This document shows, piece by piece, positions 471 to 12,769 of a stretch of 12,948 nt of DNA; position 1 is the first letter of the stretch; each line of letters begins with the position of its first letter. The DNA lies in IMG/VR virus record IMGVR_UViG_2671180986_000009. One strand, 5' to 3'. The translations under genes were made by a program, and so were the position numbers. The DNA comes from a virus. Its lineage: Duplodnaviria > Heunggongvirae > Uroviricota > Caudoviricetes. The notes under the pieces are model-generated. The model was not told the origin of the DNA. It made no database searches and saw nothing but the letters and a program-made list of their open reading frames with translations.

Positions 471-3400
471 TGTACAATCCTCCATCCCGACGCGATGACT
501 GCATAATTGACACAACCCTGCTGTCGATCAGATCCACCAGTCCCCTGGCTGAGCGCGCATCTATCTCGCCATTGCTCCCTTGATTCTGAATGCTGATGTG
601 ATACACGGGAGAATAAACAAATCCACCGCCACCATTCACATTTCCAATGGCCCTGACCCCAAGAGAGCCGTCCGCTGCCCGTGTCAGTGGCATGATTGCT
701 TCAGGCCCGGCCTCGCCCATCAACCCGGCACCTTTCGCAAAAGCAAAATACGTCGGTGTATCCACAATAGTGTTACTGTAAGCACTCAGATTTGCCGATG
801 TGTAAACACCACCTTTTGCGTTTGCCACTGCCCCCGAAATCCATCCGCCGACCGTACCAAGCCACCCTCCGGCACCGGAGAGTGATTTCAGTCCGTTAAC
901 AATGGCTGCATTCATCAGAATTTTTGAAACTTCCCGGAGAACTGAACTCCCCCAGTTCCTCCAGTCCACAACATTCCCGGCCAGTGCATCGGAAATATTT
1001 GATACCAGCCCGTCCATCGTGGAAACGACAGCATCTGCCGCCTGTGAAGCATAATCGGTGGCACTGTCTGCCCAGTTGGTCAGTCCCTCCTGGAGTCCGG
1101 CATTCCAGTTATTACGTAAAGCATCGGCCTTTGCATAATAATTCTGCTGATCGCTGAGACGCTCTTCCAGATATTTTTTATTCAGTTCTTTCTCCTGTTT
1201 CCACAGGGCTTCTTCAATTTCTCCGGCCTGATACTGTCTCAGCAGCTCGTTATTTTTCTGCTCAAACGCCTGCCGGATACTCCACATTTCCTGGAGTCGT
1301 TCACGCATCCGTGAGCCTTCACCATATCCCAACAACTGCGCTTCGTCAGATGCCCGGGCACTGGCATTACTGTCCGCCAGACTGCTCTCATACGCAGCAA
1401 GCTGCTCACGAATCTTTTTCTGGTCGATGAGTGCTGCATTCTGCAAAAGCGTTTTTTTCTGCGCTTCTGACAGGGTTGATAATTCGCCCTGACTGACCTG
1501 ATATTTCATCTTAGCCAGTTCAGTATTCTGCCCTGCCAGTGCTATTTGTTCTTTTTGCTGTTTAATCAGCCGTTTATAAATATCTTCTGTTTTTTCCGCT
1601 TCGGTCTTTTTATGCGCTTTGGGTTTATTTGCCTGGTTATTTCGCCAGGCATCCAGTGAGTTATTGATATAATTCTGTCTGGCTGTCTGATATGCCTCTC
1701 CCACAAAGCCGAGATCATCCGNNNNNNNNNNNNNNNNNNNNNNNNNNNNNNNNNNNNNNNNNNNNNNNNNNNNNNNNNNNNNNNNNNNNNNNNNNNNNNN
1801 NNNNNNNNNNNNNNNNNNNNNNNNNNNNNNNNNNNNNNNNNNNNNNNNNNNNNNNNNNNNNNNNNNNNNNNNNNNNNNNNNNNNNNNNNNNNNNNNNNNN
1901 NNNNNNNNNNNNNNNNNNNNNNNNNNNNNNNNNNNNNNNNNNNNNNNNNNNNNNNNNNNNNNNNNNNNNNNNNNNNNNNNNNNNNNNNNNNNNNNNNNNN
2001 NNNNNNNNNNNNNNNNNNNNNNNNNNNNNNNNNNNNNNNNNNNNNNNNNNNNNNNNNNNNNNNNNNNNNNNNNNNNNNNNNNNNNNNNNNNNNNNNNNNN
2101 NNNNNNNNNNNNNNNNNNNNNNNNNNNNNNNNNNNNNNNNNNNNNNNNNNNNNNNNNNNNNNNNNNNNNNNNNNNNNNNNNNNNNNNNNNNNNNNNNNNN
2201 NNNNNNNNNNNNNNNNNNNNNNNNNNNNNNNNNNNNNNNNNNNNNNNNNNNNNNNNNNNNNNNNNNNNNNNNNNNNNNNNNNNNNNNNNNNNNNNNNNNN
2301 NNNNNNNNNNNNNNNNNNNNNNNNNNNNNNNNNNNNNNNNNNNNNNNNNNNNNNNNNNNNNNNNNNNNNNNNNNNNNNNNNNNNNNNNNNNNNNNNNNNN
2401 NNNNNNNNNNNNNNNNNNNNNNNNNNNNNNNNNNNNNNNNNNNNNNNNNNNNNNNNNNNNNNNNNNNNNNNNNNNNNNNNNNNNNNNNNNNNNNNNNNNN
2501 NNNNNNNNNNNNNNNNNNNNNNNNNNNNNNNNNNNNNNNNNNNNNNNNNNNNNNNNNNNNNNNNNNNNNNNNNNNNNNNNNNNNNNNNNNNNNNNNNNNN
2601 NNNNNNNNNNNNNNNNNNNNNNNNNNNNNNNNNNNNNNNNNNNNNNNNNNNNNNNNNNNNNNNNNNNNNNNNNNNNNNNNNNNNNNNNNNNNNNNNNNNN
2701 NNNNNNNNNNNNNNNNNNNNNNNNNNNNNNNNNNNNNNNNNNNNNNNNNNNNNNNNNNNNNNNNNNNNNNNNNNNNNNNNNNNNNNNNNNNNNNNNNNNN
2801 NNNNNNNNNNNNNNNNNNNNNNNNNNNNNNNNNNNNNNNNNNNNNNNNNNNNNNNNNNNNNNNNNNNNNNNNNNNNNNNNNNNNNNNNNNNNNNNNNNNN
2901 NNNNNNNNNNNNNNNNNNNNNNNNNNNNNNNNNNNNNNNNNNNNNNNNNNNNNNNNNNNNNNNNNNNNNNNNNNNNNNNNNNNNNNNNNNNNNNNNNNNN
3001 NNNNNNNNNNNNNNNNNNNNNNNNNNNNNNNNNNNNNNNNNNNNNNNNNNNNNNNNNNNNNNNNNNNNNNNNNNNNNNNNNNNNNNNNNNNNNNNNNNNN
3101 NNNNNNNNNNNNNNNNNNNNNNNNNNNNNNNNNNNNNNNNNNNNNNNNNNNNNNNNNNNNNNNNNNNNNNNNNNNNNNNNNNNNNNNNNNNNNNNNNNNN
3201 NNNNNNNNNNNNNNNNNNNNNNNNNNNNNNNNNNNNNNNNNNNNNNNNNNNNNNNNNNNNNNNNNNNNNNNNNNNNNNNNNNNNNNNNNNNNNNNNNNNN
3301 NNNNNNNNNNNNNNNNNNNNNNNNNNNNNNNNNNNNNNNNNNNNNNNNNNNNNNNNNNNNNNNNNNNNNNNNNNNNNNNNNNNNNNNNNNNNNNNNNNNN

Positions 3401-4049
3401 NNNNNNNNNNNNNNNNNNNNNNNNNNNNNNNNNNNNNNNNNNNNNNNNNNNNNNNNNNNNNNNNNNNNNNNNNNNNNNNNNNNNNGTGATCACCGAACTG
3501 GCTTCTGCTGTACTGGCACCGGATAATTTCAGGCCCGTGGAGATCGCCTCGGTGACNNNNNNNNNNNNNNNNNNNNNNNNNNNNNNNTTTCAGTACCTCC
3601 TCAGAACTGTAACCATACTCCCGCATGGAAGCTGCAGAGCGGGCAAAAAGGCTGGCGTTATCAGAAAAAGCCGTCCCCGTTCTCTGGCTGATCGCCATTA
3701 ATTCACGCTGTGATGACTGAAAATCATCACTGGACTGTGAGGCCTGCTTCAGACGGGCATTTACTGAATTCCACTCATCGGCGAGAGAAATAAGATGACC
3801 GGTAGCAAAAGCCCCGGCAAATGCCCCCGCCATGTTCAGTGCCGAAGATTTAGCTGTATTTATCTGATCCGTCACTTCTGCCAGTGCACGCCGCATTTCA
3901 CGGGATGCAGCAGCGGACTGTCGGCCTCCGTTCTGCATGGTACGGTAGTAATCCTGCCCCATACGCGAAGCCCGGGAGATCTCTGACTGGAATGACCGGG
4001 AATTTGCCGAGATTTTAATAATCAGTTCACGTAATGTCGCCACACTCAT
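463..4049 (-). CDS. Tail tape measure protein (lambda gpH-like); interior largely N-masked
   Basis: N-terminal segment from ATG 4047-4049 reads MSVATLRELIIKIS...; unmasked island 3486-3556 reads VTEAISTGLKLSGASTAEASSVI; C-terminal 413 aa (463-1704) is coiled-coil rich and ends ...RRDGGLYSA, resembling the lambda gpH C-terminus (...RDGGLFSGGGR). The three unmasked pieces lie in different coordinate frames, so continuity across the masks cannot be verified. Confidence 0.75.
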
Positions 4050-4405: not shown

Positions 4406-4608
4406 CCTCGCCAGCATCACTGATCAGTTCCAGAGACTGCCGAAGAAGCCGCGCANNNNNNNNNNNNNNNNNNNNNNNNNNNNNNNNNNCCGGGCCATAC
4501 ACGGCAATCACCTGTTCACGATCATCCACTGAAAATACAGGTTGCAGTCCGGTATCACACAGAACATCGATGAACAGTTCAACATCCGCTTCCAGATTTC
4601 GGCGGGCG
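4392..4608 (-). CDS. Tail assembly chaperone G (lambda gpG-like); partial, N-terminus masked, 34-nt internal mask
   Basis: Only one minus-strand frame is open on each side of the 4456-4489 mask and it is the same coordinate frame: ARRNLEADVELFIDVLCDTGLQPVFSVDDREQVIAVYGP...ARLLRQSLELISDAGEVKKK*, with TAG at 4392-4394. Position between the major tail and tape measure genes and the frameshift site support the call. Confidence 0.7.
4395..4401 (-). promoter_or_regulatory. Programmed -1 ribosomal frameshift slippery heptamer A_AAA_AAG (G to G-T)
   Basis: Minus strand reads GTT AAA AAA AAG TAG at the end of the G frame (run of 8 A's at 4396-4403). Slipping back one base puts the ribosome in the T frame (..K K V A L P G M R F L..). 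The position at the 3' end of G, just before its stop, is as expected for tail chaperone frameshifting. Confidence 0.75.
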
Positions 4609-4843
4609 NNNNNNNNNNNNNNNNNNNNNNNNNNNNNNNNNNNNNNNNNNNNNNNNNNNNNNNNNNNNNNNNNNNNNNNNNNNNNNNNNNNNNNNNNNNN
4701 NNNNNNNNNNNNNNNNNNNNNNNNNNNNNNNNNNNNNNNNNNNNNNNNNNNNNNNNNNNNNNNNNNNNNNNNNNNNNNNNNNNNNNNNNNNNNNNNNNNN
4801 NNNNNNNNNNNNNNNNNNNNNNNNNNNNNNNNNNNNNNNNNNN

Positions 4844-5579: not shown

Positions 5580-5636
5580 NNNNNNNNNNNNNNNNNNNNN
5601 NNNNNNNNNNGCGGGTGGGTAAAATCATTAATGACC

Positions 5637-5733
5637 TCAGGCTATTACCTGGAATTCAAGCGTGGCTCTGCTCAGACGGGAGTCAGGATCATAACCCTGC
5701 GCTTTAGAAATAACGGAGGGTGCCAGTTTTCTT
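5637..5733 (-). CDS. C-terminal end of a tail completion / tail terminator-like protein (gene immediately upstream of the major tail gene); remainder masked
   Basis: Open minus-strand frame ending ...RKLAPSVISKAQGYDPDSRLSRATLEFQVIA* with TGA at 5637-5639. Function is inferred only from position in the lambdoid gene order. The 6017-6039 island contains a possible ATGA stop/start junction (TGA 6033-6035, ATG 6034-6036) that may be its start. Confidence 0.4.
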
Positions 5734-6857
5734 NNNNNNNNNNNNNNNNNNNNNNNNNNNNNNNNNNNNNNNNNNNNNNNNNNNNNNNNNNNNNNNNNNN
5801 NNNNNNNNNNNNNNNNNNNNNNNNNNNNNNNNNNNNNNNNNNNNNNNNNNNNNNNNNNNNNNNNNNNNNNNNNNNNNNNNNNNNNNNNNNNNNNNNNNNN
5901 NNNNNNNNNNNNNNNNNNNNNNNNNNNNNNNNNNNNNNNNNNNNNNNNNNNNNNNNNNNNNNNNNNNNNNNNNNNNNNNNNNNNNNNNNNNNNNNNNNNN
6001 NNNNNNNNNNNNNNNNTCATCAATAGCCTGATTCATTCGNNNNNNNNNNNNNNNNNNNNNNNNNNNNNNNNNNNNNNNNNNNNNNNNNNNNNNNNNNNNN
6101 NNNNNNNNNNNNNNNNNNNNNNNNNNNNNNNNNNNNNNNNNNNNNNNNNNNNNNNNNNNNNNNNNNNNNNNNNNNNNNNNNNNNNNNNNNNNNNNNNNNN
6201 NNNNNNNNNNNNNNNNNNNNNNNNNNNNNNNNNNNNNNNNNNNNNNNNNNNNNNNNNNNNNNNNNNNNNNNNNNNNNNNNNNNNNNNNNNNNNNNNNNNN
6301 NNNNNNNNNNNNNNNNNNNNNNNNNNNNNNNNNNNNNNNNNNNNNNNNNNNNNNNNNNNNNNNNNNNNNNNNNNNNNNNNNNNNNNNNNNNNNNNNNNNN
6401 NNNNNNNNNNNNNNNNNNNNNNNNNNNNNNNNNNNNNNNNNNNNNNNNNNNNNNNNNNNNNNNNNNNNNNNNNNNNNNNNNNNNNNNNNNNNNNNNNNNN
6501 NNNNNNNNNNNNNNNNNNNNNNNNNNNNNNNNNNNNNNNNNNNNNNNNNNNNNNNNNNNNNNNNNNNNNNNNNNNNNNNNNNNNNNNNNNNNNNNNNNNN
6601 NNNNNNNNNNNNNNNNNNNNNNNNNNNNNNNNNNNNNNNNNNNNNNNNNNNNNNNNNNNNNNNNNNNNNNNNNNNNNNNNNNNNNNNNNNNNNNNNNNNN
6701 NNNNNNNNNNNNNNNNNNNNNNNNNNNNNNNNNNNNNNNNNNNNNNNNNNNNNNNNNNNNNNNNNNNNNNNNNNNNNNNNNNNNNNNNNNNNNNNNNNNN
6801 NNNNNNNNNNNNNNNNNNNNNNNNNNNNNNNNNNNNNNNNNNNNNNNNNNNNNNNNN

Positions 6858-6913
6858 CGGGCGGTGGTGACATTCAGAATAATTACGCGATCACGTAATC
6901 TGCCCGCCTGCAT
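6858..6913 (-). CDS. Head-tail adaptor / head closure protein, N-terminus only (rest masked)
   Basis: ATG at 6911-6913 is preceded by GGAGGAG with about 5 nt spacing, and overlaps the connector gene stop. Reads MQAGRLRDRVIILNVTTA, a typical N-terminus of HK97-type head-tail joining proteins. Confidence 0.5.
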
Positions 6914-6921
6914 GTCTCCTC

Positions 6922-7255
6922 CTACAAAGGAATAAAACGATAAGGCTCCAGCAGAGAAGAAAAACCAAACGGGACTGGTGCCTTGCTGACATCTGAGGAA
7001 TTTTCCCGGTTTTCGTACCAGTGCCCGACCAGCAACATGAGCGCCAGCAAAACATCATCAGCTATAAGCACCCCTTCAGGATCACCTTCCGGCACCGTCT
7101 CCTCATAAAGCTTACGGTTGATAAAATTTTCTGCCTTGCGGCAGGCAGCCCGGAAATACAGCATCAGNNNNNNNNNNNATCAGTAACTCATCATCAGTTG
7201 CATCATCTGTATCAATACGGCACTGCGCCCTGAGTTTTTCCACTATTGCTGCCAT
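6922..7255 (-). CDS. gp6-like head-tail connector protein; contains an 11-nt mask across which the reading frame changes
   Basis: ATG at 7253-7255 is preceded by AGGAG. N-terminal part reads MAAIVEKLRAQCRIDTDDATDDELL. After the 7168-7178 mask the family-like sequence continues in another frame (LMLYFRAACRKAENFINRKLYEETVPEGDPEGVLIADDVLLALMLLVGHWYENRE...PYRFIPL*), with TAG at 6922-6924. Confidence 0.65.
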
Positions 7256-7331: not shown

Positions 7332-8549
7332 TTATTTGCCAGTGAGCGCCTTGATGGCTGCCACATCTTCCAGCACACAGTCAAAACGATGGAAAGCCAG
7401 AAATGCCACCTGATCAAACTCAGCATAACGCTCAACCAGACGTTTCAGTTCCATATAAGTAACGCGGCGAATGATAAAGCGGTTGAAATCCCCCAGGAAA
7501 ATGAATTTTTTTCCGGTACCAATCCCGTCAATAGCCTGATCAATAACATAAGGGATCCCCAGCACAGTAGCCGGCGTACCGCCTGCAATATCCGGCAGCC
7601 ATAACGGGCGTTTCTGCCCATCCTCCATCTCTTCAATAGTCTGCAATGTGGCATCATTGAATGCCCAGCGGTATTTCGGCCCACCACGATATGCCGGATC
7701 AATGGCATGTTTCAGGGCATTCATTTCTTTCCAGGTGAAAGCGGCAGAGGCTGCAGTCTGGATGGTTCCCGTCACCGACGCTGCCAGCCCTTTTGGCTGT
7801 AACGGTGATCCCGTTCCGGTCCCCTGAACCAGATATTTTGCCTCTCCACGACCAATACGCTGGGCAATACGGTTTGCCAGATAAGATTCAATATCCACCC
7901 CACTGTCCTGGAGCAGCTCATTGGACACACGAATTATTTTTGATGACAGCTTTTTAGCCCCCAGAATAGCGGTCCCGAACGTCACATCCTGTTCCGTTGC
8001 GGCTGTATTTTCCGCCAGCAGTTCGCCCTCTTCAGTCGTGCCATCAGACGTTGACCAGGTGATATCCTGCCCGGTTGATGTGGTCAGAAGTTGCGCCACA
8101 CTGGCAATCCCGCCATAAGCCTTCATGGTGTCAATGATTTTGTTACGCATCTGCGTGGGCACCGTATATCCGCCCTGAGAATCCGTTGTTACACTCTGAG
8201 CCCGCAGTTCACGCATCAGATTACGCTCTTCAGCATTCAGTTCTGCAAATCCGGCACGCAGAAAACGGTTAAATGCCGCAGCGCGCTTCTCTTCCACCGC
8301 CTTTTTCCCGTTCTCCGCCTCATTATTCTGGCGCTCTTCCGGCCCGGACTCATCCACATATGCCTGATCCTGACGGCGCAACTCTTCTTCACGGGCGATT
8401 TGCTCATCCAGCGCATCCAGCTCAGCTTTCGCCCTGTTCCACTCTGCCCGTTGCTCATCAGTCCATGCGTTATCACCAATTTTTTCATGCAGTGCACGCA
8501 TATCCTTTGCAATGGTGTTTCGTTTTTGCTTCATCTCATGAAGTTTCAT
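7332..8549 (-). CDS. Major capsid protein, HK97 fold
   Basis: 405-aa ORF with a charged coiled-coil N-terminal (delta/scaffold-like) region followed by a capsid-like body. Position is directly downstream of the prohead protease. Confidence 0.9.
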   Translation of the reverse strand: MKLHEMKQKRNTIAKDMRALHEKIGDNAWTDEQRAEWNRAKAELDALDEQIAREEELRRQDQAYVDESGPEERQNNEAENGKKAVEEKRAAAFNRFLRAGFAELNAEERNLMRELRAQSVTTDSQGGYTVPTQMRNKIIDTMKAYGGIASVAQLLTTSTGQDITWSTSDGTTEEGELLAENTAATEQDVTFGTAILGAKKLSSKIIRVSNELLQDSGVDIESYLANRIAQRIGRGEAKYLVQGTGTGSPLQPKGLAASVTGTIQTAASAAFTWKEMNALKHAIDPAYRGGPKYRWAFNDATLQTIEEMEDGQKRPLWLPDIAGGTPATVLGIPYVIDQAIDGIGTGKKFIFLGDFNRFIIRRVTYMELKRLVERYAEFDQVAFLAFHRFDCVLEDVAAIKALTGK

Positions 8550-8563
8550 CGTCAGTAGTATCC

Positions 8564-9163
8564 TTATGCATTAAGAAGAGTCAAAAGACGCTCACGCGCC
8601 ATTCGTTCGTTAACAGCTTTCTTCAGCGCACCACTCGCCCGCGCTTCCTGCCAGGCTTTCATTGAGCGGACACCAGAGTCTGCGTCCTGATAGGCCGGAT
8701 ATGTCACCGGGCTGACGTCATACAGACGAGAAATGCGCGTGATTTCCCGGATAACAATCCCCTCGTCGTCTTCATACCAGCTCTCTCCGTCACGGGCGAC
8801 ACGAAACGCGAACGAGGACTGATTAATGTCACCACGCAACATTGGAGACAGCACCAGGTCACAAATAGTCGGAGTATCCGGTGCAACAATGTCATAACGT
8901 AAACCGCGTTCATCCACCGACAATGACAACGTGCCGGCAGAACTTCGTCCGAGAATGAAATTAGGATCATGATTAAACAAGCCACGTACATCATCATTCA
9001 GTACATCATCAAAAGCCCCCGGCTTGATGATTTCACGAAATCCCCACAGAGGTTCTGAACGACTGTTAAATACCGAGCCATACCCCAGAATGTGGGTCGG
9101 GGCATTATCATATTGTTCCGCCCGCACCTCCCCGCTGTAACAGCGCGTTTCACGGTCATTCAT
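8564..9163 (-). CDS. Prohead maturation protease, HK97 family
   Basis: 199-aa ORF (MNDRETRCYSGEVRAEQYD...ILGYGSVFNSRSEPLWGFREII...DVSPVTYPAY...). GAGGA ribosome-binding site about 9 nt upstream of the ATG; start overlaps the portal stop by 8 nt. Confidence 0.85.
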   Translation of the reverse strand: MNDRETRCYSGEVRAEQYDNAPTHILGYGSVFNSRSEPLWGFREIIKPGAFDDVLNDDVRGLFNHDPNFILGRSSAGTLSLSVDERGLRYDIVAPDTPTICDLVLSPMLRGDINQSSFAFRVARDGESWYEDDEGIVIREITRISRLYDVSPVTYPAYQDADSGVRSMKAWQEARASGALKKAVNERMARERLLTLLNA

Positions 9164-10382
9164 CGTTCTTTTCCTCTTTGCCTTTCGTATCTTTAAAGTT
9201 ATTCAACGGATTTGCTGCATTTACGCTGACCAGCATTTCATCCAGACCGTCAACCGGGTTCATATCCTCAAATGCCCTGGCTTCATTCCGACTCATCCAG
9301 CCATCTGTAATGGCAAAGTGATAGAACTGCGCACGCTCCTGTGGGGTCCCACGGAGCAACCCCGTGAGGTTGAAACGAACGTAATACCCGGCAGCCCGTT
9401 CTGTACGGGTAAACAGGCGACGGTTAAGCTCCTGCTCCCAGTTCGCAACCCAGGGCATCATCGTGTAGCGAACAAACTGAATCGCCTGCTGCGTAATATT
9501 CGAAAATGTGGCTTTTTCCAGGTCATTAATCATGTGCGCCGGGACATTAAAAATCCCGGCAATCATCGACCGGTTCAGCTTGGTCATATCAATGATCTGA
9601 GCATCCACCGGAGAAACTGTCAGAGCGCGGTAATCCAGTTGCGCAGGCAGCAACATGGTTTTATTTTCCTGGCTGCGAAGCGCTGTCACCGCCCGCTGCC
9701 ACATATTTTTAAGCCTGCCCCAGCTTTGTTCGTTCAGTTCATTTTTCACAGAAATAATACCGGCAGGACGGGCATTACCGTTAAAAAAGGCGCTGGTATA
9801 CTGCTGGCCACTCATTCCCATACCAATGGTTTCAGCATGCTGCATGATCGGGCTCAGTCCCATTTTCTGATTGTTTCCCAGCGCCCTGATATGGATCATG
9901 TCGTCCGGACTTACCGCAAATGCACCCTCTTCGTTATACACCCCGTAAGTATGACGCCCACCGGTGTTAAGTAACGTGGTTTCCCATGGCATACAGCATT
10001 CAAGGCTGGTAACCTCTCCACGACGATTACGTTTTACCCACGTATAACCATTGCCCCACCCCAGCACATGACGCTGCTTCAGTTCCCGCCACTTATAGCT
10101 GGTCTGCCAGGCATTAGGTTCATCATGAACGAGCCAGAACAACGGATGATCGCGTGCCGGCTGAACATGCTCATTCGTTTTTCGCATCACATGCAGGGGC
10201 ATCTGAGCCACACTGGATGAAATAACATAAATACAGGCATAGACAGCAGCCAGCTTCATGGATGTTTCCGGACTGACATACACATCCCGGGCAAAAATAT
10301 TATCCGTCTCAGCGGCCTCTCCGGTTACCGGAACCGAGGGATTTTCCAGAGGCTCACTGCGAAACAGAGCATCAAGAAGCAT
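9156..10382 (-). CDS. Portal protein, HK97 family
   Basis: 408-aa ORF with a strong GAGGAG ribosome-binding site 5 nt upstream of the ATG at 10380-10382. Size and position between large terminase and protease fit a portal. Confidence 0.9.
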   Translation of the reverse strand: MLLDALFRSEPLENPSVPVTGEAAETDNIFARDVYVSPETSMKLAAVYACIYVISSSVAQMPLHVMRKTNEHVQPARDHPLFWLVHDEPNAWQTSYKWRELKQRHVLGWGNGYTWVKRNRRGEVTSLECCMPWETTLLNTGGRHTYGVYNEEGAFAVSPDDMIHIRALGNNQKMGLSPIMQHAETIGMGMSGQQYTSAFFNGNARPAGIISVKNELNEQSWGRLKNMWQRAVTALRSQENKTMLLPAQLDYRALTVSPVDAQIIDMTKLNRSMIAGIFNVPAHMINDLEKATFSNITQQAIQFVRYTMMPWVANWEQELNRRLFTRTERAAGYYVRFNLTGLLRGTPQERAQFYHFAITDGWMSRNEARAFEDMNPVDGLDEMLVSVNAANPLNNFKDTKGKEEKNDE

Positions 10383-10512
10383 GTTTTCTCCTCATGGACA
10401 CCACCAGTGCATAAAGCAGCAACAAACAGCCCGACAGCATCAGAGACGCTGGCAGACCTGCATACAGATAAACGCCAGCAGTGAGCAAACCGAAACCGAT
10501 CAGCCCGGTCAT
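10372..10512 (-). CDS. Small hypothetical hydrophobic protein (46 aa, predicted membrane peptide) in the terminase-portal intergenic gap
   Basis: ATG at 10510-10512, 17 nt after the large terminase stop; TGA at 10372-10374 overlaps the portal start. Translation MTGLIGFGLLTAGVYLYAGLPASLMLSGCLLLLYALVVSMRRKHAS. No clear Shine-Dalgarno, so expression would rely on coupling to the terminase gene. Below the length cutoff of the supplied ORF track. Confidence 0.35.
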   Translation of the reverse strand: MTGLIGFGLLTAGVYLYAGLPASLMLSGCLLLLYALVVSMRRKHAS

Positions 10513-10529
10513 ATCAGTAATAAGCTGTT

Positions 10530-12287
10530 TCACAGAATTAACAGGTCCTCATCAGGATCAAGCGTGGACAGAAAGTCATTCACGCCCCCGCCATTTACCA
10601 GAAAGCGGCTCATGGCCGTAAAAAGCGCAACAGGGCCGTCGATTTTGGCTTCAGGCGTGGATTTATTCGGGAAGATGTTGTCGTTTTTGTCCGGTTTTAC
10701 CGTAACGTTAGACATCATCCAGTTCATGACCGGATGATTGCTGTGATGGAAACGCCCGGCATAAACCAGTGATTCCGTTTCCTTCATGGCCTCTGACAGA
10801 TTGCGGACCGTCTGCGGAACCTCCACCAGCGGTATCCCTTCTTCAGCCAGTGCCAGGCTGAACTGCATTGCGCTCCACGGGTCAAATCCCAGTTCCCTGA
10901 GGTTTTCACCGCCAATCCATTCCAGTAAGTCACTTTTTATCTGAGCATGATCGATAACATCACCATCCGTCAGGATGAGCTTATCCATCTCCGCCCACTT
11001 CCGGTAAAGTTCTGCCTGCTGCCGCGAGCATCGCTCCAGCCGTCCTTCCGGAAGCCAGAATTTAAAATCAGCATGAACATGTCCGTTATCGGTTCGCCAG
11101 AGTTTTGCCGCCGCACAGATATCAATCTTATGAGCAAGGTCTACGCCGACCCACATGGGATATGTTTTCAGCTCATGTTGTGGAGCAATGTATTCGCACT
11201 TCTCCCACTTAATCATATCCATCCAGGCAGATTCGGCAGTGACCCACACATTCATGTGTTTGGTAAAAAAATTCACCCGCGCAGAGACCTGCTCCTTCGC
11301 TTTTTTCGCCAGACGACGCAGATCATCCCAGCGTTTACAGATGCCCAGGCCAGGATTCGCTTTCTGCCAGACCGTTTCATCAAACGGATCATCTCCCTCA
11401 TCGAGCGTGTAAATGATCGCAAAGTAGGAGTCGTCTTTTACCGCGCCCTCCACGTCGCTGTTATAGCCTCGCAATACCTTAATGGCGTAATCGCGCTGCT
11501 CGTAGCAAATCCCTTCCTTGTTAAAGCCAGCCGTGGTGATGCCAAATAACAGAGACTGCAGACGGGCACCGGTTGCCGTTTCCAGAACGTCCCACACGTC
11601 ACGGGTTTTATGAGCATGCAGCTCATCAATAATGGCGCAGTGGATGTTCAGACCGTCCAGGTTGTTTGCATCCGAGGAAAGCGGTTCAAATTTTGATGCG
11701 CTCTGCTCCTGGTAAATCGCCAGCTTGTTGAAATCAAACAACCGCCCGAGTGTCGACCGGGCTTTTCTGACCATATTTTTGGCGTCTTCAAACACAATTC
11801 TGGCCTGGTCACGCGTGGTTGCGGCTGAATACACCTCAGCACCGCCTTCACCATCTGCCCCCGTCATATACAGACCGATACCCGATGACAGGGTTGATTT
11901 TGCGTTTTTACGGGCAACTTCGTTGTATGCTGTCCGGAACCGGCGCACCATCACCGGGCGTCCACTGCCATCGCTGCGCATGACAACTTCCCCGGTTTCT
12001 TCATTCACCAGCGGAATGACAAAACCAAAAATATTAATGAGGATAAACACATGCCAGTCCATCAACTCAATGGGCTGACCTGCCAGCGCCCCTTTCACAT
12101 GGGGTACAAATTTGTAGAAATTAAGGATGTGCTGTGCACGAGGTTCACTGAAATAAATCCCCCGCTCTTCGCCGTACTTCAGATCATCAAGAAAACGCTG
12201 GCAGGCCAGACGGACAAATTCGCCAGCAACAATTTCTCCTGCAACAACACGTTCGGCGTAGCGGATCCCGTCACCCACTTTTGCCAT
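10530..12287 (-). CDS. Terminase large subunit
   Basis: 585-aa ORF (MAKVGDGIRYAERVVAGEIVAGEFVRLACQRFLDDL...) typical of HK97-like large terminases. Its ATG overlaps the small subunit stop (ATGA at 12285-12289). Confidence 0.92.
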   Translation of the reverse strand: MAKVGDGIRYAERVVAGEIVAGEFVRLACQRFLDDLKYGEERGIYFSEPRAQHILNFYKFVPHVKGALAGQPIELMDWHVFILINIFGFVIPLVNEETGEVVMRSDGSGRPVMVRRFRTAYNEVARKNAKSTLSSGIGLYMTGADGEGGAEVYSAATTRDQARIVFEDAKNMVRKARSTLGRLFDFNKLAIYQEQSASKFEPLSSDANNLDGLNIHCAIIDELHAHKTRDVWDVLETATGARLQSLLFGITTAGFNKEGICYEQRDYAIKVLRGYNSDVEGAVKDDSYFAIIYTLDEGDDPFDETVWQKANPGLGICKRWDDLRRLAKKAKEQVSARVNFFTKHMNVWVTAESAWMDMIKWEKCEYIAPQHELKTYPMWVGVDLAHKIDICAAAKLWRTDNGHVHADFKFWLPEGRLERCSRQQAELYRKWAEMDKLILTDGDVIDHAQIKSDLLEWIGGENLRELGFDPWSAMQFSLALAEEGIPLVEVPQTVRNLSEAMKETESLVYAGRFHHSNHPVMNWMMSNVTVKPDKNDNIFPNKSTPEAKIDGPVALFTAMSRFLVNGGGVNDFLSTLDPDEDLLIL

Positions 12288-12769
12288 CAGTCTCTCGCTT
12301 TTAAAAGCTCTGCCAGCGGATCAACATCATCCGGTCCGGCGGTATTTACTTTCGCCCGGCTTGCCGGTGACATACCAAACTCTGCAAGCATCGCCCGAAT
12401 CCGCTTCCAGGCATCAGCCTTCATCGCAGCAGCCGGGTGTGCCTTGATCAGCACATCGCCATTCTGCGTTTCCGTGCGGTAGGTATAACCCTCAACATCG
12501 AGTATTTCGCAGTGATGCCGGTATTCGGTGTAGGCTTCCACCAGTAACTCGAGCGCACGTGCATCGAGCTGAGAAATGATCCCTTCCGCATTCAGCTCTT
12601 CCGCCATTCGCCTGAACCAGTACTTCCCCTGCGCCCCTAAATGTTGCGGAATTTTAGGGAGACCTTTTTCATCCTTTTTAGCGGTTTTTTTGGAGTCTTT
12701 AACTGGCCGCTTAGAGGGGTTACCTCGTATCAAATGCAGGCGTGGCGGGGTTTTCGGGGGTCCAGACAT
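12287..12769 (-). CDS. Terminase small subunit (P27 family)
   Basis: 160-aa ORF with a basic N-terminus (MSGPPKTPPRLHLIRGNPSKRPVKDSKKTAKKDEKGLPK...), located directly upstream of and translationally coupled to the large terminase. Confidence 0.85.
   Translation of the reverse strand: MSGPPKTPPRLHLIRGNPSKRPVKDSKKTAKKDEKGLPKIPQHLGAQGKYWFRRMAEELNAEGIISQLDARALELLVEAYTEYRHHCEILDVEGYTYRTETQNGDVLIKAHPAAAMKADAWKRIRAMLAEFGMSPASRAKVNTAGPDDVDPLAELLKARD

Follow-up and report, generated by a model that had tools for sequence, protein, structure and literature searches.

We analysed a 12,948-nucleotide (nt) stretch of viral DNA (IMG/VR record IMGVR_UViG_2671180986_000009, hereafter the window), which is part of an E. 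coli HK97-like prophage; every gene of interest is encoded on its minus strand. An uninterrupted hydrophobic open reading frame (ORF) fills the 147 nt that separate the stop codon of the large terminase gene, terL (10530-10532), from the ATG of the portal gene (10382). We have very little doubt, from sequence comparison, that this small ORF is a real gene. Its 53-residue product is very probably, as modelled, a membrane hairpin of two transmembrane (TM) helices, and the substitution pattern among its homologues indicates that the protein evolves under purifying selection. The homologues define a family of proteins of ~50-65 amino acids (aa) in phages and prophages of Gamma- and Betaproteobacteria which, in the loci compared, always lie between the large terminase and a PF04860 portal. 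The features involved are:

10372-10533, minus strand: the small ORF, 53 codons plus TGA, between terL and the portal gene.
10530-12287, minus strand: terL, 585 aa, with TerL_ATPase and TerL_nuclease domains; stop codon TGA at 10532-10530.
9156-10382, minus strand: the portal gene, 408 aa, Phage_portal PF04860 (HK97-type), ATG at 10382.
10530-10533, minus strand: GTGA overlap, in which the start GTG of the small ORF shares 2 nt with the terL stop TGA (10532-10530).
10372-10382, minus strand: overlap of 11 nt in which the small ORF ends and the portal gene begins.
10388-10392, minus strand: portal Shine-Dalgarno AGGAG, 5 nt upstream of the portal ATG and inside small-ORF codons R48-R49.

The open frame of a single sequence is no more than expected by chance. 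A frame of at least 52 codons was present in 5638 of 20000 shuffles (28%) of the 162 nt, owing to the scarcity of A on the coding strand (27 of 162 nt). The original prediction had warned that composition alone could produce such an ORF, and this caution was justified. Hence, the case for a gene rests on the comparative data, which are strong. We retrieved loci via TerL, independently of the peptide, and found 20 with a 52-53-aa homologue starting on the terL stop (type A). These contain 15 distinct nucleotide sequences, with a median identity of 59% at the nucleotide and 51% at the amino acid level, and among these diverged variants the frame of the small ORF is the only one open in all. The ratio of non-synonymous to synonymous substitution rates (dN/dS), measured on codons 2-44 so that both overlaps were left out, has a median of 0.32, compared with 0.9-2.1 in four control frames and 0.46 in the antisense frame sharing third positions. 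The substitution frequencies at codon positions 1, 2 and 3 are 0.40, 0.24 and 0.55. At the other end of the range of divergence, 33 near-identical IMG/VR copies hold ten polymorphic sites, nine synonymous and one non-synonymous (binomial P = 6e-5). The check on frame conservation proposed with the original prediction therefore came out in favour of a gene: the amino acid reading frame is kept across the 15 diverged variants, at the dN/dS given above. A 159-codon ORF on the plus strand (10258-10737), which runs antisense to the small ORF and to the parts of terL and the portal gene that adjoin it, was taken as spurious, since the antisense frames show no purifying selection, bar the expected mirror effect in one of them.

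The comparison also moves the start codon. The original prediction described a 46-codon ORF starting at ATG 10512, 17 nt past the terL stop, and overlapping the portal gene by 11 nt. This arithmetic is correct, but the true start lies seven codons upstream: the frame continues from ATG 10512 to a GTG at 10533-10531, and the product, with GTG read as Met, is MKQLITDMTGLIGFGLLTAGVYLYAGLPASLMLSGCLLLLYALVVSMRRKHAS (53 aa). In alignment A1, M1, K2 and D7 never vary (in alignment A3, which has 30 sequences, K2 is nearly invariant), whereas Met8, encoded by ATG 10512-10510, is unconserved and replaced by V, I, L or A in homologues. On these grounds the start is almost certainly GTG 10533 (53 aa) and not ATG 10512 (46 aa). 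Homologues carry ATGA at the matching position, and all 20 type A loci have either ATGA or GTGA there, an arrangement typical of termination-reinitiation coupling.

The other end of the gene is equally compact. The last 21 nt of the small ORF hold the portal Shine-Dalgarno and the portal ATG, with GGTGTCCATGAGGAGAAAAC directly before the ATG; homologues have AGGGGG or GAGGGGG at the Shine-Dalgarno position. The 11-nt overlap with the portal gene is found in 19 of the 20 type A loci, the other being Salmonella phage F1055 with 7 nt. Because AGGAG encodes R48-R49, the basic tail RRKH appears to be partly a by-product of the gene overlap. Distant members of the family that lack the portal overlap still show basic residues after helix 2.

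AlphaFold2, run with the 30-sequence alignment, returned a helical hairpin (H2-25 and H27-52) with a mean predicted local distance difference test score of 82. Mean hydropathy reaches 2.2-2.6 over TM2 and exceeds 1 over TM1, and basic residues flank both ends. The short membrane peptide of one or two helices suspected originally is thus upheld, as one with two helices, by both predictions. The two predicted segments are separated by a very short turn (GLPAS) of 2-4 residues:

10456-10512, minus strand: predicted TM helix 1, residues ~8-26, Gly/Ala/Thr-rich, with invariant G13, G20, Y22/L23 and G26.
10393-10449, minus strand: predicted TM helix 2, residues ~29-47, with invariant L31, G35 and L43 and nearly invariant A42.

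Given K2 at the N-terminus and RRKH at the C-terminus, the positive-inside rule predicts an N-in/C-in topology in the inner membrane, with both ends cytoplasmic. The conserved small residues stand at heptad spacing (G13/G20/G26 and G35/A42), which in the model would suit tight antiparallel packing of both helices.

The family is broad, and its position is fixed. A profile search retrieved 184 clusters at 90% identity in Enterobacterales, nearly all of 52-53 aa and all named 'hypothetical', from Xenorhabdus, Proteus, Morganella, Providencia, Klebsiella, Citrobacter, Salmonella, Edwardsiella, Arsenophonus, Pantoea and others. An exhaustive hidden Markov model search of 1.84 billion representatives gave 234 proteins of 45-65 aa with full-length matches, 26 of them at E <= 1e-10. 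The family signature can be written D7-G13-G20-YL-G26...L31-G35. The 46 sequences inspected all keep it: K/R...D at the N-terminus is followed by G-x-x-G...G-x-Y-L-x-F/Y-G, a short turn, L...G...A-L within the second helix and, last, a basic tail. The slot between terL and the portal gene is occupied in 20 of 20 type A loci and in all six distant members looked up, where portal identity to that of the window is 70, 62, 52, 39, 28 and 21%. In addition, gp25 of Ralstonia phage Dina, which has a Betaproteobacterial host, is a clear member (60 bits) in the terL-portal slot. Vibrio K311 has a weakly similar hairpin. We found no small ORF annotated in the slot in Serratia PhooPhighters, Moraxella Mcat12, Geobacillus PK3.6, Staphylococcus phiSa2wa, Methylophilaceae P19250A or the HK97-type HK140. 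Translation of the 77-nt gap of Mcat12 yielded no ORF, and neither did an ORF scan of the slot in Endozoicomonas prophages. A small membrane ORF is hence not universal among HK97-like phages.

The original prediction held the ORF to be unannotated and beyond the reach of standard gene callers. This is contradicted by the public records: PGAP, RAST, Prokka and Pharokka-style phage records all call it. PGAP has it as WP_000811487.1, a 'hypothetical protein' whose coding sequence (CDS) is exactly 162 nt with the GTG start, and an identical 162-nt CDS is annotated in phage Evi. The peptide matches the profile of phrog_7105 (E = 9.4e-20, its residues 1-52 aligning with positions 1-52 of the 52 in the profile; homologues reach E = 1e-22 to 1e-23). 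This family, also represented in vB_EcoS-733R4, Morganella IME1369_02, Edwardsiella EPP-1 and Klebsiella vB_VIPKPNMC05, is the same as that of the window ORF, with the same 162-nt CDS and the same overlaps, and differs in nothing. Some GenBank records hold the 46-aa form as a 'putative membrane protein'. A 701-nt query spanning the terL-portal junction matched 13 phage records, and its coverage reached at least 80% in 630 of the 5426 complete E. coli genomes. In 20 of the 20 genome rows listed, and in the nine phage records, out of nine, that cover the junction, the matched stretch bears an annotated 'hypothetical protein'. The gene is thus already on record as a hypothetical protein with a PHROG family, and as a discovery it is ordinary. 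One record that has the gene without annotating it is that of SfV (NC_003444.1), where the type A ORF is intact (record positions 2289-2450). There it is masked because the start of the portal gene (orf3) was set at 2392, an in-frame position 48 nt upstream of the one at which the portal starts in all relatives.

Searches for a characterised relative were negative. Pfam and NCBIfam hold no family for the small ORF; a sub-threshold match to PVV_CTERM was rejected as compositional. A sequence search of the PDB with the family profile gave nothing at E <= 10, and Foldseek against BFVD returned only uncharacterised phage hairpins of ~55 aa (E >= 0.6), which is uninformative. Rfam had no match in 10200-10700, and we therefore dropped the explanation by a structured RNA. 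In the literature searched we found no functional study of the phrog_7105 family or of the YmfR family; what came up was general text on holins, lists of genes, one table of transcriptome data and one ASKA screen.

Exchange between terminases and portals reveals with which of its neighbours the hairpin is inherited. Portals of at least 77% identity all come with type A, even when the body of TerL is only 33-37% identical (SfV, Edwardsiella EPP-1, Salmonella F1055). SfV is a myovirus, whereas the window carries siphovirus tail genes. Peptide divergence correlates with portal divergence (Spearman rho 0.63) and not with that of the TerL body (0.19). When a TerL that is 62-87% identical over its last 200 residues is paired with a ~28%-identical portal, the slot holds a different hairpin of 58-64 aa, the YmfR type (17 intact loci). 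When the same TerL type is paired with a third portal type (type C), there is no ORF and the terL stop abuts the portal ATG (10-11 loci). The 80 closest IMG/VR relatives comprise 33 of type A and 47 without the type A motif. In all 47 the TerL match has its boundary at residue 567, and the other hairpin is carried in the three junctions read among them (L104, L120 and L140). From these alignments, the recombination joint falls within the ~18 final codons of terL, around residue 567. One more element travels with the small ORF and the portal:

10533-10577, minus strand: C-terminal tail of TerL, the last ~15 residues (DFLSTLDPDEDLLIL), co-inherited with the small ORF and the portal.

This tail, DFLSxLDPDxxLLxL, stays with portal type A and is 65-76% conserved where the TerL body is 33-37% identical. 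Terminase C-termini are known for their role in portal docking, and the inheritance of the tail would fit this role. We infer that the small ORF belongs to the portal/head module and not to the terminase. The original prediction saw no expected place for it among the parts of a head-assembly module; in this clade, all the relatives examined have it next to the portal. The third portal type was found at L012, L017-L019, L030, L032, L033, L041, L045 and L049. It is 434-443 aa long, ~26-35 residues longer than the portal of the window (408 aa), and has the N-terminus MKKNKQPGRVKSALLNWLGVPISL...

The second hairpin is phrog_502 (IPR020297), the family of YmfR (b1150) of the cryptic prophage e14 of E. 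coli K-12. It is already labelled a membrane protein in public records: 'putative integral membrane protein' for L37 of phiP27, 'membrane protein' in SfI and SfII. In e14, ymfR is flanked by remnants of a terminase gene (aaaE) and of a portal gene (beeE) (PMC11541549). The YmfR type shares with type A the terL-portal slot (L36-L37-L38 in phiP27), the two-helix hairpin, the tight packing against the portal start and the position in the late operon, and it replaces type A when a near-identical terL joins a different portal type. It differs in length (58-64 versus 52-53 aa), in motif (G-x-AG...YGAWL-x-x-P-x-AGF...CL-x-WS) and in its acidic, Gly-rich C-terminus, where type A has a short tail of basic residues. 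Its start codon lies 10-16 nt beyond the terL stop, and its end forms an ATGA with the portal start. A sequence kinship between the two types is suggested by hhalign (68% probability, E 4.9e-5), although the compositional bias of TM helices could account for it. The same holds for the match of the type A peptide to phrog_502 (E = 1.3e-6, 28.8 bits) and for the cross-profile scores of 15-20 bits one way and 4-9 the other. The mRNA of ymfR rises by ~4.5 log2 alongside other e14 genes under SOS-inducing conditions (PMC10012262).

Three records (ON470580.1, ON470603.1 and ON470584.1) annotate the YmfR-type hairpin as 'head-tail joining protein W'. The W gene of lambda is located between the A and B genes. 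The label is almost certainly a positional mis-annotation from lambda, a ~60-aa protein with two TM helices being no homologue of gpW. We also observed one frameshifted hairpin ORF of each type, with sequencing error possible in both: a type A ORF in Ca. Symbiopectobacterium endolongispinus (L015) and a YmfR-type ORF in Xenorhabdus bakwenae (L050). The former genome is that of an insect symbiont, and the frameshift is consistent with prophage decay.

The anatomy of the operon bears on when the protein is made. A consensus scan of the minus strand around the small ORF found no promoter- or terminator-like sites. The GC content is 0.506 at 10360-10519 and 0.49-0.52 in the flanks; T-richness alone deviates, as is typical of sequences coding for TM segments. 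The gene overlaps terL by 4 nt (GTGA) and the portal gene by 11 nt. With no promoter or terminator, a start on the terL stop and the portal Shine-Dalgarno inside it, the small ORF would be expressed solely from the late operon, translated by ribosomes on their way from terL to the portal gene. This arrangement points to late, translationally coupled expression, in amounts tied to those of TerL and the portal.

We favour, tentatively, the reading that the protein is a late, translationally coupled inner-membrane hairpin of the portal/head module and that it may tether the assembly of the portal to the membrane. That it acts with its cognate portal is a possibility we hold with similar reserve; that it is specifically a membrane tether or chaperone for portal assembly, the mechanism we rank first, is a speculative argument from analogy, and unlikely as it stands. 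In such a mechanism, the hairpin would insert co-translationally and thereby draw late mRNA and ribosomes to the inner membrane; the coupled downstream portal would then be made at the membrane and be held or nucleated there by the hairpin. In T4, the portal initiator gp20 is membrane-bound in a manner dependent on gp40 (PMC9958956). The hairpin would be a minimal functional analogue of this gp40-dependent initiator: gp40 is a membrane protein that the phage encodes and that has a functional tie to the portal at the inner membrane in head initiation, and the window ORF likewise encodes a predicted membrane protein. More widely, and rather improbably, a large group of HK97-like phages of Proteobacteria (type A and the YmfR-type portal clades) may nucleate or hold the portal ring at the inner membrane via a portal-specific hairpin.

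Several points weigh against this interpretation. There is no match in Pfam, PHROG, PDB or BFVD to any characterised protein, gp40 itself not having been compared directly. The gene for T4 gp40 is not known to lie beside gene 20, and HK97-type proheads are not known to need a membrane. The linkage to the portal may reflect the placement of recombination joints and not a functional partnership. The peptide is 43-62% identical to that of the window where the portal is 81-89% identical, a faster evolution that is unusual for a tight structural partner, and the overlap with the portal Shine-Dalgarno accounts for some of the conservation at the C-terminus (R48). Closely related terL genes are also paired with portals that lack such an ORF (type C, Endozoicomonas, PhooPhighters, HK140, Staphylococcus, Geobacillus), so the hairpin is not a general requirement of HK97-like head assembly.

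The rival that survives best, if still somewhat unlikely, is a late membrane effector outside assembly, which would block the entry of DNA from superinfecting or re-adsorbing phages (Imm- or gp15-like) or tune membrane integrity and the timing of lysis (holin- or antiholin-like), and which in both cases would merely be carried along in the late operon beside the portal. Class II holins and pinholins such as S21 are small, with two TM helices, an N-in/C-in topology, Gly/Ala/Ser-rich helices and a charged C-terminus. The window ORF resembles them and small exclusion proteins in its size and in its predicted two TM helices, N-in/C-in layout and charged C-terminus, and its helices are rich in Gly, Ala and Ser. 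Its fast evolution relative to structural genes is as expected at conflict interfaces, and it is dispensable in related phages. Unlike class II holins, it lies outside the lysis cassette, of which the prophage already has a complete one, and it matches no Pfam holin family; it is, to our knowledge, shorter than known holins. No PADLOC model matches it either (no families at E <= 1 for type A or for the YmfR type). A precedent for exclusion does exist in HK97 gp15, a small inner-membrane exclusion protein in a structural operon (PMC3594210). Without a promoter of its own, the window ORF cannot protect the lysogen. Moreover, gp15 excludes by way of the incoming tail (PMC3594210), whereas the linkage of the window ORF is to the portal, and its head module is found with different tail types. 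The terL-portal position is kept down to 21% portal identity, which is hard to explain for an accessory effector.

We consider it very unlikely that the ORF is a mere translational-coupling spacer, in which translation through the interval sets the TerL to portal ratio while the peptide is functionless and hydrophobic by composition. The GTGA/ATGA overlap with terL, the portal Shine-Dalgarno and start inside the ORF, the ease with which composition opens such a frame (28% of shuffles) and the coincidence of R48 conservation with the Shine-Dalgarno would all suit a spacer. Yet D7, G13, G20, G26, L31, G35 and L43 are invariant away from the overlaps, even when the nucleotide sequence is unrelated. 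The dN/dS of 0.32 was obtained outside the overlaps, nine of the ten polymorphisms are synonymous, and length is held at 52-53 aa. Coupling does not need 150 nt, since in relatives the terL stop abuts the portal ATG.

The suggestion of the original prediction that the ORF is a moron-type factor or toxin, i.e. horizontally acquired and independently expressed membrane cargo (for superinfection exclusion in the lysogen, or a small toxin), is highly improbable after this analysis. Morons come with a promoter and a terminator of their own, a deviant GC content and expression from the repressed prophage (PMC3594210). The small ORF does not qualify, because the consensus scan revealed no promoter or terminator of its own and its GC content is that of its neighbours; it overlaps both of these and has no PADLOC match. 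HK97 gp15 is likewise a small inner-membrane protein inside an HK97-like structural operon, and PHROGs files the analogous YmfR-type phrog_502 under 'moron, auxiliary metabolic gene and host takeover'. However, gp15 has a site in the tail operon, its own promoter and terminator, deviant GC, prophage expression and an action on the incoming tail (PMC3594210), none of which is seen for the window ORF. A moron is expected to be sporadic and variably placed, whereas this position is held across deep divergence; and as for being an addition, the hairpin is absent where the same terL joins portal type C and always present with its own portal type. The ASKA clone of ymfR, which turned up in the first round of an unrelated exporter screen, grew under isopropyl thiogalactoside (PMC10299036), a weak argument against toxicity of the analogue. 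On this sequence evidence, the gene is probably a late component of the head module rather than a moron. A chance open frame in a T/G-rich intergenic spacer, with no gene at all, is matched in length by 28% of shuffles and is refuted beyond reasonable dispute by frame conservation, dN/dS and the whole of the comparative evidence.

The rest of the window conforms to an HK97-like head module followed by a siphovirus tail module:

12287-12769, minus strand: terS, P27 family.
8564-9163, minus strand: S78 prohead protease.
7332-8549, minus strand: major capsid protein.
1722-3485, 3557-3587, 4456-4489, 4609-4843, 5580-5610, 5734-6016, 6040-6857 and 7168-7178: runs of N (masked).

Five long overlapping ORFs lacking Pfam domains, at 1566-4049 (minus), 1692-3701 (plus), 1715-3493 (minus), 5704-6873 (minus) and 6020-6913 (minus), were rejected as genes; they and the apparent split of the tape-measure gene are artefacts of the N-masked stretches. 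The complete lysis cassette (class II holin, RrrD lysozyme and lysis protein) lies elsewhere in the prophage, 2 kb upstream, upstream of HNH and terS. An E. coli prophage (NZ_CP065615.1) has a 701-nt terL-portal junction 100% identical to that of the window. This copy is probably defective: IS21 (istA/istB) is inserted at 10333-12302 of that locus, between the head-closure and HK97-gp10 genes, and the antiterminator Q is frameshifted. A cluster of four tRNAs (Ile, Lys, Thr, Gly) lies upstream of its lysis cassette.

What the present analysis adds to the catalogued hypothetical protein is the GTG 10533 start (53 aa), purifying selection, the locking of the slot across phages of Gamma- and Betaproteobacteria, and inheritance with the portal and the TerL tail. 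If portal rings of these phages are indeed nucleated or held at the inner membrane, membrane-initiated head assembly, so far a peculiarity of T4 (gp40/gp20), would be widespread, and a protein of 53 residues would offer a handle on how exactly one portal vertex per capsid is specified. A 53-aa family with an analogue in K-12 is a cheap and well-defined target for finding out if membranes play a part in the portal and prohead assembly of some HK97-like phages.

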